This document shows positions 13,917 through 38,493 of a stretch of 64,000 bases of DNA, in pieces. Source of the stretch: Candidatus Omnitrophota bacterium (GTDB taxonomy: Bacteria > Omnitrophota > Gorgyraeia > Duberdicusellales > 4484-171); contig JBAZGN010000004.1 of the NCBI GenBank assembly GCA_041652815.1, positions 79,890-143,889 of the forward strand. The letters run 5' to 3'. A program made the translations under genes and the position numbers. Under the pieces are notes generated by a model. It saw only the letters and a list, made by a program, of their open reading frames with translations. It was not told the DNA's origin and did no database searches. Position 1 is the stretch's first letter. Every line of letters begins with the position of its first letter.

Positions 13917-14552
13917 ATGTGGCTGTGGATATCTAAGGGTGGCTTAATGATGGTGCCTATTATGCTCTGTTCAGTATTTACTTTAGCTATTATTGTTGAG
14001 CGTATTTTATTCTATTTTTCAAAGATTAAAGTAAATAGCCAGGATTTACTCAATCAAATAGTAGATCGTGTGCGTAAAAACAAAATTTCAGAGGCGGTTG
14101 ATATGTGCGAAAAAAATCCGTATTATATGACAAACATATTAAAAGCAGGTTTGGTTTATTACGAAGATTCCAGAGAGGCCATAAAAGAGGCCATAGAAAC
14201 TGCTTCGCTTTATGAGTTGCCTAAATTGGAGAAAAATTTAAGTTTCTTAAATATGTTGGCCAATATAACACCATTGCTTGGGCTTTTAGGCACGGCTATC
14301 GGTTTATTCAAAAGCTTCTATGCAATTTCACAAAAAGCAATTAGTGTTGGGATCGTTGCACAAGCTGATATAGCAATCGGTTTATGGCAGTCGTTAATTG
14401 TTACGGTAAGCGCTCTGGCAGTTGCGCTACTTGCGTCAATATTCTATCAATATTTTGTGCACAAGGTTAATTTTTATATTCTTGAAGCAGAGAGAGCTTC
14501 CGGAGAAGTGCTGGAAGCTTTGTCTCAGAGGAGATATGCAGGTGAAATTTAA
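13917..14552 (+). CDS. exbB: MotA/TolQ/ExbB proton-channel family protein
   Basis: 211 aa; 3 TM; LGLLGTAIGL motif of the TolQ/ExbB family. Confidence 0.8.
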   Translation: MWLWISKGGLMMVPIMLCSVFTLAIIVERILFYFSKIKVNSQDLLNQIVDRVRKNKISEAVDMCEKNPYYMTNILKAGLVYYEDSREAIKEAIETASLYELPKLEKNLSFLNMLANITPLLGLLGTAIGLFKSFYAISQKAISVGIVAQADIAIGLWQSLIVTVSALAVALLASIFYQYFVHKVNFYILEAERASGEVLEALSQRRYAGEI

Positions 14553-14931
14553 AAGGCGCCTGGGAAAAACCTCTTATTTCAATCAGGTAAACAATATTTC
14601 TTTTTTAAATATATTATTGTTATTCTTTGCTTTTCTTATGCTCGGTACCGGCTTTGCGATTGTGCCGGGATTGAACGTTAAACTCCCAAATGTTGTAACC
14701 TCAAAAGAGTTAAGTAAGATGATTGATGTCAGGATTTCAGATGACGATACAATATATATACAGGGTAAGCCGGCATTTATCAAAGATGTGGCTATATTCT
14801 TGAAAAAAAACAAGTATGATACTGTTTTTATCAAGGCAGACAAAAATTCAAATGTAGGAGTTTTAACCGAAGTATGGCAGGCCTGCAAAGAAGCAGGCAT
14901 AGGACGGATAAGCTTTGTTACAAACCAGTGA
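14536..14931 (+). CDS. exbD: ExbD/TolR family biopolymer transport protein
   Basis: Internal ATG of ORF 14422..14931 preceded by GGAG; single TM then ExbD-like periplasmic domain; 17-nt overlap with exbB. Confidence 0.7.
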   Translation: MQVKFKRRLGKTSYFNQVNNISFLNILLLFFAFLMLGTGFAIVPGLNVKLPNVVTSKELSKMIDVRISDDDTIYIQGKPAFIKDVAIFLKKNKYDTVFIKADKNSNVGVLTEVWQACKEAGIGRISFVTNQ

Positions 14932-17519: not shown

Positions 17520-19298
<1,779 letters not shown>

Positions 19299-19382
19299 GT
19301 TGTTACAATCTACAGCACAGATATTTGCTCATTGTTAGAAAATATATTCGCGGGGTGGAGCAGACAGGTAGCTCGCAAGGCT

Positions 19383-20044
19383 CGATGGATACAAAACTTA
19401 AAGCTGACATTGCGGAATCAGCCGTAATCACTGAACTTCTTAAAAGAGGTTTTAGGGTGTTACGGCCGTAGGCGATAGGCTTTCCTATGATTTGGGTGTA
19501 GATTTTCAAGGAGAGTTTATCCGTATCCAGGTAAAAAGCGCGTGGTTTAACACAAAGGACAAGTGTTATATCGTTGATGCTCGGCGAACTAAGACTAATC
19601 GCCGGCGTATGTTAAGAGCGCATTACCGCAAGAACGACTTTGATTTCGCAATTGTTTACATCGCTGATTCAAATGTGTTCTACGTTATGCCTATAGCCGC
19701 GTTCTCTGGTTATAAAAGCACCATACATTTGTTGAATCAAAAAAGCGGCAGCGTGGGCCAAAAACAGCGATTTACAGAGAGCGATGGGATTTGTTATCCA
19801 ATGGGTCCCTCAGTCGGTAACGATTGATGGAAAACTTGTCAAATTCGGTGAAACTCTCGATGTTAAGTCAGAGCAATACCGAGCCAAGCCTTGACATTGC
19901 GTCAAGGAAGGTGTAGAGACTAGGTGGCAGGGACCCAACGCTAATTTAAAGTGTAACATAATTAGTGCTGGGTTAAGGTATAGTCCAGACTACAAACTCT
20001 TAACAAGCAGTTGTTAGGGGGCAGTGAAAACTGTAGCAGTAAAG
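19383..20044 (+). ncRNA. Group I intron (IC3-like, Azoarcus/cyanobacterial tRNA-intron type) carrying an ORF
   Basis: Core elements tcaaattcggtgaaact (P3/P4), gagccaagcc, gtgtagagactag (P7 5'), aaggtatagtccaga (P7 3'); omega G before the 3' exon. Confidence 0.8.
19385..19827 (+). pseudogene. Intron-encoded PD-(D/E)XK (Hjc/YraN-like, I-Ssp6803I-type) homing endonuclease, -1 frameshifted
   Basis: Frame 1 MDTKLKADIAESAVITELLKRGFRVLRP* stops at 19469-71; it continues in ORF 19492..19827 frame (GDRLSYDLGVDFQGEFIRIQVKSAW...), giving an E...D...(I/V)xVK nuclease motif. Confidence 0.55.
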
Positions 20045-20224
20045 CATAACCTTGAGGTCACAGGTTCAAATCCTGTCCCCGCAATGTCTTCTTTTTTACA
20101 TCATTTTCAAGCCAACGACACCATTCTTTTAACAATAGTAATATTTGGATGTAATAGTGCCTTCGGCACACTCCGCCTTCGGCGGAGATTACATACAAAT
20201 CCTGTCCCCGCAATGTCTTAAATT

Positions 20225-20270
20225 GAAGGCGTAGATTGAAGAAATTCAGTCTACGCCTTCGTTGTTTTTC
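20225..20270 (+). terminator. Rho-independent terminator
   Basis: gaaggcgtagattgaagaaattcagtctacgccttc stem followed by gttgttttt. Confidence 0.6.
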
Positions 20271-20377
20271 TCCCAGCTAAATTATTATCAAAAGTTCTAC
20301 CAAAAATTTTATTCTGTAATATAATAGAATATAATATACTGATATTATTATAAGGTATTTGTGATAATAGGGAATTT

Positions 20378-38009: not shown

Positions 38010-38180
38010 TTGTTCTTTTACAAATTTATTCCCCGGTAGCCAAATTCGCCTTTTTCCACAATTTTGATAAAGGCGAATTTGTCCCGACGAACTCGGGGTA
38101 AATTTATGAAAGAAATTTACCCCGTATCTAGGTGAGTCGGGATAATAACATTGTTCTTTTACAAATTTATTCCCCGGTAG
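38010..38180 (+). repeat. 31-nt direct repeat (ttgttcttttacaaatttattccccggtagc), second copy includes the tRNA 5' end
   Basis: Copies at 38010-38040 and 38148-38178; hairpins between them. Confidence 0.6.
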
Positions 38181-38493
38181 CTCAATTGGTAGAGCGGCTG
38201 GCTGTGCGAGGCCGAAGGCCGAGCATCTCGAGGCGATAGCCGAGAGATCTTGAACTCAAGGTGTTAGCAGCTCTTATGGGAAACCGTAAGATGAAAAAGC
38301 GAGTAAATTCAGGGAAACCCCGACGTTACGTTGGGGCAATCCTGAGCCAAGCCCTGTATGGGAAGGTGCAGAGACTAGACACTCGCTGCCTAAATCCGAT
38401 GTGGACATGGCAAAGGTATAGTCCGACTCTCACAGTAATGTGAGTCAGCGTGTAACCAGTAGGTCGTAGGTTCGAGCCCTACCCGGGGAGCCA
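38171..38493 (+). tRNA. tRNA (Thr-UGU if spliced after U33; alternatively Asn-GUU) interrupted by a 247-nt group I intron
   Basis: 5' exon tccccggtagctcaattggtagagcggctggct, 3' exon tgtaaccagtaggtcgtaggttcgagccctacccggggagcca; intron 38204..38450 carries gcagagactaga / ggtatagtccg P7 elements and aaattcagggaaacc, gagccaagcc. Confidence 0.8.
38204..38450 (+). ncRNA. ORF-less group I intron (IC3-like)
   Basis: Conserved P3/P4/P7 sequences as in the Azoarcus tRNA-Ile and cyanobacterial tRNA introns; omega G; P1 ggct/ggcc with U.G at the splice site. Confidence 0.8.

Follow-up and report, generated by a model that had tools for sequence, protein, structure and literature searches.

A group I intron with a broken I-Ssp6803I-type endonuclease gene in an initiator tRNA gene of Candidatus Omnitrophota

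The initiator tRNA gene (tRNA-fMet) of Synechocystis sp. PCC 6803 contains an intron of 655 nt with an open reading frame (ORF) of 150 aa, I-Ssp6803I (PMC1995217, Table 1). In a 2026 survey, 4,934 complete bacterial genomes yielded 333 group I introns in tRNA genes; 12 of these had endonuclease genes, of which just two, both from Cyanobacteriota, belonged to PF11645 and lay in tRNA-fMet. A supplementary table of the survey contains one Omnitrophota genome, GCF_004102945.1, with a tRNA-fMet intron of 252 nt (PMC13011429). The present study concerns a tRNA-fMet gene that is split by a group I intron in a 64,000-nt stretch of a Candidatus Omnitrophota bacterium (assembly GCA_041652815.1, contig JBAZGN010000004.1, positions 79,890 to 143,889 of the forward strand). 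This whole stretch is called the window hereafter; coordinates are counted from its first letter, and all features of the tRNA-fMet locus lie on the plus strand. I consider it very probable that this is a chromosomal tRNA-fMet gene with a self-splicing group I intron between tRNA positions 33 and 34, whose endonuclease gene was killed by two deletions, and which therefore stands in a 'fixed intron, decaying endonuclease gene' phase. The arrangement is a known kind of mobile element and is common in Omnitrophota. The literature search found no published description of an endonuclease-bearing tRNA-fMet intron in this phylum, and NCBI annotation already names the proteins concerned 'group I intron-associated PD-(D/E)XK endonuclease'.

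The Synechocystis intron (GenBank U10482; PDB 2OST) and the window intron share the host gene and the insertion site (33/34, CU|CAUAA), are of nearly equal size (655 nt and 662 nt, with ORFs of 150 aa and, once repaired, 145 aa), and carry ORFs of the same family, PF11645. They differ in host, which is a member of the Cyanobacteriota in one case and of the Omnitrophota in the other, in the state of the ORF, which in the window, unlike in Synechocystis, is inactivated by two 1-nt deletions, and in the anticodon stem of the target, which reads CAAGG/CCUUG in the window and UCGGG/CCCGA at two cyanobacterial loci (L074 and L076). The second close system consists of the ORF-less IC3 introns in tRNA-fMet genes of cyanobacteria and of GCF_004102945.1, which are inserted at the same site as the window intron. 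In an alignment of 71 introns described below, the window core aligns with the ORF-less introns of L022, L043, L074 and others; these introns are 205-325 nt long and have a short P1 loop, whereas the P1 loop of the window intron contains a 436-nt endonuclease pseudogene. In the supplementary table of PMC13011429 the tRNA-fMet 33/34 entries bear the label IC3, and by analogy with them the window intron may be described as an IC3-type group I intron.

The 5' exon (19349-19382; tRNA positions 1-33, ending in ...GGCU) and the 3' exon (20045-20084; CAUAA...CCCCGCAA, with CCA not encoded) were joined by in silico splicing into a 74-nt sequence, which ARAGORN identified as tRNA-Met(cat). An earlier note on this DNA, made by a model from the letters and an ORF list, had proposed an initiator tRNA split by a group I intron with a frameshifted endonuclease gene; covariance-model, profile and PDB matches and a comparison with roughly 80 related loci, given below, support this reading. 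In its intron-aware mode ARAGORN called the same tRNA-Met gene directly in the window, with an intron of 662 nt, while its default mode overlooked the split gene in the window sequence. The spliced tRNA (CGCGGGG...CCCCGCAA) folds into a standard cloverleaf with a CAU anticodon; it has an unpaired C1 x A72 at the end of the acceptor stem, and its D stem, GAGC/GCUC, gives A11:U24. The C1 x A72 mismatch and the A11:U24 pair are marks of bacterial initiator tRNAs.

The intron itself comprises 662 nt (19383-20044) and enters the anticodon loop after U33, directly ahead of C34. The Rfam family Intron_gpI (RF00028) matches it at 19783-19996; with 63.7 bits (E 8e-14) this match, from the covariance-model check that the earlier note had suggested, is above the gathering score of 50. 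The boundaries follow the rules for group I introns, with U19382 before the 5' splice site and G20044 as the terminal omega G, followed by CAUAA, and the core strings that the note had picked out are present at 19841-19855, 19881-19890, 19913-19923 and 19976-19986.

Related introns were gathered by a genome scan and by exact look-ups, and 71 distinct ones were aligned, using the ends of the exons, the initial bases of the intron and the whole sequence from the guide onward. From this alignment RNAalifold recovered P1, P2, P3, P4, P6a, P8, P9a and P9. Pairs were then counted over helices defined on the window sequence, with the 3' partner slid by 1-2 columns as a control: P1, P2, P3, P4, P6, P6a, P7, P8, P9.0 and P9 had 94-100% canonical pairs, whereas the canonical fraction of the slid control fell to 1-70%. 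Cells changed on both sides numbered 136 in P2, 196 in P6a and 123 in P8, and compensatory changes were present in P3, P4, P6a, P7 and P8, while P5 was variable, with just 62-79% canonical pairs. Covariation thus backs the conserved P3-P9 core, including the P3/P7 pseudoknot. In the window the catalytic core spans 19835-19986 and consists of P3 (19835-19840 with 19926-19931), P4 (19845-19849 with 19878-19882), P5 (19854-19873), P6 (19883-19885 with 19910-19912), P6a (19889-19907), P7 (19918-19922 with 19981-19985) and P8 (19932-19974). The 3' domain (19989-20044) adds P9.0 (19989-19993 with 20036-20040), P9a (19997-20020), P9 with its GAAA loop (20021-20034) and the omega G.

The two strands of P1 lie far apart, at 19379-19390 and 19796-19807. 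GGCU|C (19379-19383), which spans the splice site, pairs with the internal guide sequence GGGUC (19803-19807), and UGGAU (19386-19390) pairs with AUCCA (19796-19800) as an extension of the helix. P1 was 97% canonical in the 71 introns; the U.G pair at the splice site was invariant, and the adjoining exon pairs alternated between G:C and G:U. In the ORF-less relatives P1 is a small hairpin, in which exon GGCU and the intron C are paired with a nearby downstream GGGYN, and the conserved AAUGGGUCC (19800-19808) of the window agrees with this hairpin. P2 follows as the hairpin UCAGUCG-GUAA-CGAUUGA (19810-19827), which has a GNRA loop and was 97% canonical. Another guide candidate, UGGGCC at about 19756-19761 (GGCUCG/UGGGCC), was dropped, being absent from L002 and L003, while AAUGGGUCC is conserved. 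The Rfam alignment opens with a hairpin (GGGAUUUGU.../...GGGUCCC) that was also read anew, with the P1 guide sequence as its 3' arm.

How selection acts on the locus can be read from a comparison with L001 (JGI Ga0172381_10101023, protein P0002), the closest relative with an intact endonuclease gene. The exons are identical (74/74, so that the 5' exon is a 100% match), the ribozyme part (19783-20044) is identical at 259/263 positions (98.5%), the ORF part at 375/400 (93.8%) and the upstream gene divIC at 273/300 (91%). The ribozyme RNA is thus far better conserved than the ORF or divIC, which fits a ribozyme that is still needed to make the tRNA. This pattern is the opposite of what would be expected if the interrupted gene were a non-functional relic in a cell that uses an uninterrupted tRNA-fMet gene and no longer needs splicing. 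The idea of a relic can draw on the fact that just 64 kb of the genome were examined, on the endonuclease gene that is already decaying, and on one mismatched pair in P9.0; all other pairs from P1 to P9 are canonical, however, and a promoter-like site and a terminator-like hairpin lie on either side of the gene. The promoter-like site, TTGACA-16 nt-TACAAT with a TG extension (19282-19309), was identified by consensus match (11/12) about 40 nt 5' of the tRNA, its -35 hexamer lying inside the end of divIC, and the orthologous intron-less locus L091 has a like promoter arrangement. The terminator-like hairpin of 17 pairs with a T run (20224-20261), likewise a consensus match, would close the tRNA transcription unit. 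In addition, the position after eno and divIC is conserved and holds tRNA-fMet in relatives with or without the intron, and no other tRNA-fMet was found in the 64-kb window in either the default or the intron-aware mode of ARAGORN. Altogether, a relic seems unlikely to me.

Several points nevertheless weigh against a functional, self-splicing tRNA-fMet gene with a decaying endonuclease gene. Three consecutive G:C pairs in the anticodon stem (29-31:39-41) are a hallmark of initiator tRNAs, but the stem here, CAAGG/CCUUG, has A29:U41 followed by two G:C pairs. The description of a canonical tRNA-fMet in the earlier note therefore stands for the CAU anticodon, C1 x A72 and A11:U24, but not for the anticodon stem. 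CAAGG/CCUUG is the commonest anticodon stem among the Omnitrophota tRNA-fMet loci recovered, and since most of these genes have it, the stem with two G:C pairs looks like a trait of the clade and not like a defect. The mismatch in P9.0, an A x C, is the single non-canonical pair of the counted helices in the window and is common to the window and L001; it is probably tolerated, because L001 has an intact ORF together with the same mismatch. A second, uninterrupted tRNA-fMet copy may exist elsewhere in the genome, self-splicing activity is inferred from conservation, and the three assemblies in which the deletions were seen, introduced below, may derive from related samples.

The endonuclease pseudogene (19385-19820) is of the I-Ssp6803I type, a PD-(D/E)XK homing endonuclease, and now runs through three frames: A (19385-19468), B (19469-19725) and a third (19726-19820). 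At the first lesion (19468-19469) one G was lost after 19468, where L001 has CCGGTA and the window CCGTA, which creates a TAG stop at 19469-19471 after 28 codons. At the second (19725-19726) one A was lost after 19725, where L001 has GTAACA and the window ATACA, which puts the last 31 codons into the third frame, while frame B reads on to a TGA at 19825-19827. The earlier note had reported a -1 frameshift at 19469, corresponding to the first loss, and had missed the second; its statement that two frames jointly give a nuclease accordingly applies to A and B but not to the last 31 codons. The joined A+B translation matched chain A of PDB 2OST (I-Ssp6803I, titled 'putative endonuclease' in the PDB) over 118 residues with E 1.5e-37, without a gap across the junction, and the translation joined across the first frameshift matched PF11645 with 137.2 bits (gathering score 26.1). 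The parallel to the Synechocystis intron that the note had drawn is confirmed by these matches and by the common 33/34 site. Owing to the two 1-nt deletions, no uninterrupted frame covers the whole PF11645 domain.

Restoring one base at each lesion gives a 145-aa product that ends at the stop codon in P2. NCBIfam has no family for this repaired protein, which lines up with 19 relatives along its whole length and retains all family-invariant columns of the resulting 20-sequence alignment: E11, Y35-D36, Q49-V50-K51, and the RRTKTNRR and KRQRxP segments. D36 and Q49-V50-K51 align with YDL and VQVK of 2OST, and I take D36 and the QVK residues to be catalytic. The longest fragment that remains readable has 111 aa (19492-19827); it begins past D36, and its last 38 residues are out of frame. 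It is present in public records (MCK9615337.1, MFA5305415.1) under the name of a group I intron-associated PD-(D/E)XK endonuclease.

Position and sequence of the ORF are closely interlaced with the ribozyme. The guide GGGUC lies 420 nt 3' of the splice site, so that the ORF fills the P1 loop (L1). Its ATG at 19385 is at intron position +3, i.e. directly after the 5' splice site, as the earlier note had stated, and upstream of it the sole purine-rich stretch, which may serve as the ribosome-binding site, is the AAGG in the anticodon stem at a distance of four bases. The start region AUGGAY pairs with RUCCA immediately 5' of the guide, and the extension strand (19386-19390) takes in two bases of the start codon, so that the start codon would be sequestered once P1 forms. 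Across 47 distinct ORF-containing introns, the variable pair of the P1 extension was C:G in 29, U:A in 14, U:G in three and non-pairing in one. Since the changes on both sides are synonymous (Asp GAU/GAC and Leu UUA/UUG), the constraint on this extension acts on the RNA. At the other end, the ORF closes with codons (...LSNGSLSR) that also supply the guide sequence and the 5' strand of P2, and the original stop UAA (19818-19820) sits in the GUAA loop of P2. With both of its ends involved in helices, translation of the ORF and folding of the ribozyme are probably mutually exclusive.

The earlier note had left a choice between a decaying gene and a sequencing error, and the evidence fits the former. 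Were the gene intact in the organism, both frameshifts would have to be errors of sequencing or assembly. Each lesion is indeed a single-base loss in a run of two bases (GG to G and AA to A), a pattern possible for consensus errors, and apart from the indels the ORF retains every family-invariant residue. However, 6.3 kb at the locus, with both deletions included, are 100% identical in two other public assemblies, both labelled Candidatus Omnitrophica/Omnitrophota: ENA ERZ27247363, contig k141_293713 (18.8 kb), and NCBI GCA_023227945.1, contig JALOCC010000032.1 (22.2 kb). The k141-style contig name suggests the assembler MEGAHIT, which is taken to mean short reads. Gene calls of NCBI and JGI give the same 111-aa fragment, which the protein cluster also records on a 209-kb contig and under a second NCBI accession. 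Furthermore, stop-free stretches of 200 codons or more occur 38 times on the plus strand of the window and add up to 44 kb; with no indel evident in these 44 kb, the two within 438 nt argue for real mutations. A pair of overlapping ORFs (13917-14552 and 14422-14931) was considered as a further frameshift and turned out to be separate ExbB and ExbD genes. Decay is also common in the endonuclease family: the same gene has independent lesions in five other species, of which L019 and L036 have nonsense mutations (codons 32 and 110), and L078, L059 and L063 each have a frameshift of their own. Sequencing error is consequently a highly improbable explanation.

Even less credible, to the point of being almost negligible, is continued production of the endonuclease, through programmed ribosomal frameshifting or from interacting fragments, in an intron that is still mobile. 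What speaks for it is that the 111-aa middle fragment could start at a TTG (19492) and that public records list it as a protein. Yet production would need two separate shifts, and neither site has a slippery heptamer. The fragment starts past the family-invariant Y35-D36, and its 38 out-of-frame residues replace the conserved C-terminus KRQRxP...YRERWDLL, while close relatives encode the protein in a single frame. The loss of the endonuclease through two deletions remains the preferred reading.

The distribution of the gene places the window in a wider context. A search returned 731 endonuclease homologues at E <= 1e-5, the best matches being almost all from Omnitrophota. A genome scan with one genome per species found at least 118 loci with an endonuclease relative, i.e. 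at least 118 species-level genomes, mostly Omnitrophota. The claim of rarity outside cyanobacteria is therefore true of the complete-genome survey (PMC13011429) but not of the databases. The best 80 of the 118 loci were analysed. Most copies among them sit in a tRNA-fMet intron at 33/34, and most of the 80 carry the label Omnitrophota or 'uncultured Planctomycetia', of which the second may, at a guess, stand for mis-assigned metagenome-assembled genomes of Omnitrophota. A few are from Bacteroidota, 'Deltaproteobacteria', Patescibacteria, Margulisiibacteriota, Melainabacteria and Cyanobacteriota. Among all loci retrieved (L001-L085), 51 tRNA-fMet introns at 33/34 have an ORF of at least 130 codons with its ATG in the first 20 nt, and in six further introns, belonging to other phyla, an intact ORF begins deeper inside.

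In 13 species the tRNA-fMet intron is ORF-less (205-325 nt) and the endonuclease gene is outside the tRNA (L022, L043, L048, L056, L062, L065, L067, L068, L070, L074 from Nostoc, L076, L077 and L085). Empty sites were found as well: a metagenome scan for the uninterrupted anticodon arm gave at least 120 contigs, and at least 13 intron-less contigs keep the eno-divIC-tRNA gene order of the window, which several occupied sites also share. One of these empty sites, L091, has a tRNA that is identical to the spliced window tRNA at 72/74 positions and an enolase with 78% aa identity. The tRNA-fMet gene of Omnitrophota thus occurs in four states: empty (L091), with an intron and a live endonuclease gene (L001, L002 and more), with an intron and a dead gene (the window, L019, L036, L078, L059, L063), and with an ORF-less intron (L022 and more).

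A cyclical model of gain, fixation, degeneration and loss of homing endonucleases is due to Goddard and Burt (1999), as cited in PMC1995217. In the form in which it is cited there, the finding of all stages at an orthologous site in one phylum is as this model expects. The target differs, being an essential bacterial tRNA gene here and a yeast mitochondrial rRNA gene in the model, and the order of events at the Omnitrophota site is read from coexisting states.

From these observations the following course of events may be proposed. The tRNA gene would be transcribed from its own promoter-like site to the terminator-like hairpin. In the precursor, P1 would arise by pairing of GGCU|C with the guide GGGUC, which places the U.G pair at the splice site, and the P3-P9 core would catalyse guanosine-initiated splicing, which presumably joins CU to CAUAA and yields a normal initiator tRNA. 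Formerly, the intron would have spread by homing, by means of the I-Ssp6803I-type endonuclease gene in the P1 loop. In the relatives with an intact gene, the endonuclease is expected to cleave tRNA-fMet genes that lack the intron, the intron then being copied into them during repair. In the window lineage, two 1-nt deletions in the dispensable P1 loop would have separated the catalytic Asp from the QVK motif, and purifying selection would continue to act on the ribozyme and the exons, since the cell cannot yet do without the tRNA.

If this is correct, an essential initiator tRNA gene can stay hostage to a mobile ribozyme long after its mobility gene has died. The textbook 'cyanobacterial' arrangement of I-Ssp6803I is in addition seen to be widespread in a different, uncultured phylum. 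A more far-reaching proposal is that the initiator tRNA supply of Omnitrophota commonly hinges on a self-splicing ribozyme that requires GTP, the intron persisting through repeated invasion and decay of the endonuclease; I regard this as a long shot. In this view, splicing and endonuclease translation would compete on one transcript because the start codon is locked in P1. If splicing responded to guanosine nucleotide levels, the intron could couple the capacity for translation initiation to the energy state of the cell and would then not be a neutral parasite. There are practical implications too. Default tRNA detection misses the split gene, so that tRNA inventories of such genomes likely look incomplete, and gene callers annotate the fragment of a dead endonuclease as a protein. 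Estimates of completeness and tRNA inventories of metagenome-assembled genomes of Omnitrophota would be wrong unless the searches are intron-aware.

At the 13 loci with an ORF-less intron the PF11645 gene is free-standing, and in most of them it lies 57-330 nt 3' of the tRNA terminator; L076 has the gene upstream instead, and at L022 the distance is about 1.1 kb. A second copy of the tRNA 3' exon, beginning exactly at CATAA, comes after the endonuclease gene in L065, and L056 and L077 have partial copies of the tRNA 3' end after the endonuclease gene. 'Collaborative homing' has been described for phages, and a free-standing gene beside an intron-protected target resembles it, at least by analogy. 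At L022 (375-1500), when the DNA was read by eye, a small helix-turn-helix-like protein and a protein with an HNH motif were apparent between tRNA-fMet and the PD-(D/E)XK gene; this locus may hold a mobile-element gene cluster at the tRNA.

A second tRNA gene split by a group I intron lies elsewhere in the window (38171-38493, intron 38206-38452), with an Rfam group I match of 82.3 bits at 38242-38445. ARAGORN called it tRNA-Thr(UGU) with an intron at 33/34, but U1-A72 with the discriminator G73, P1 and in silico splicing favour tRNA-Asn(GUU) with an intron at 35/36, a reading that gives a P1 of 6 bp in which GGCUGU pairs with GCAGCU (38267-38272), with a U.G pair at the splice site. This Thr/Asn miscall is described in PMC13011429, where 35/36 introns are enriched in Patescibacteria and rare elsewhere, and where Omnitrophota are absent from the phyla given for them.

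Finally, the last 18 nt of the tRNA-fMet gene and 6 nt of its flank (CAAATCCTGTCCCCGCAATGTCTT, 20067-20090) are repeated exactly 129 nt downstream (20196-20219). The insert between the repeats (20091-20219) is absent from L001 and L091 and folds as a stem with two UUCG-loop hairpins; the z-score of -6.1 belongs to the whole stretch 20085-20275, including the terminator. The insert resembles a scar left behind when an element integrated at the 3' end of the tRNA gene. Similar duplications of the tRNA 3' end were seen in L043 and L056, and a 38-nt stretch of Arthrobacter phages matches the 3' exon at 95%, in keeping with the use of tRNA-fMet genes as attachment sites.

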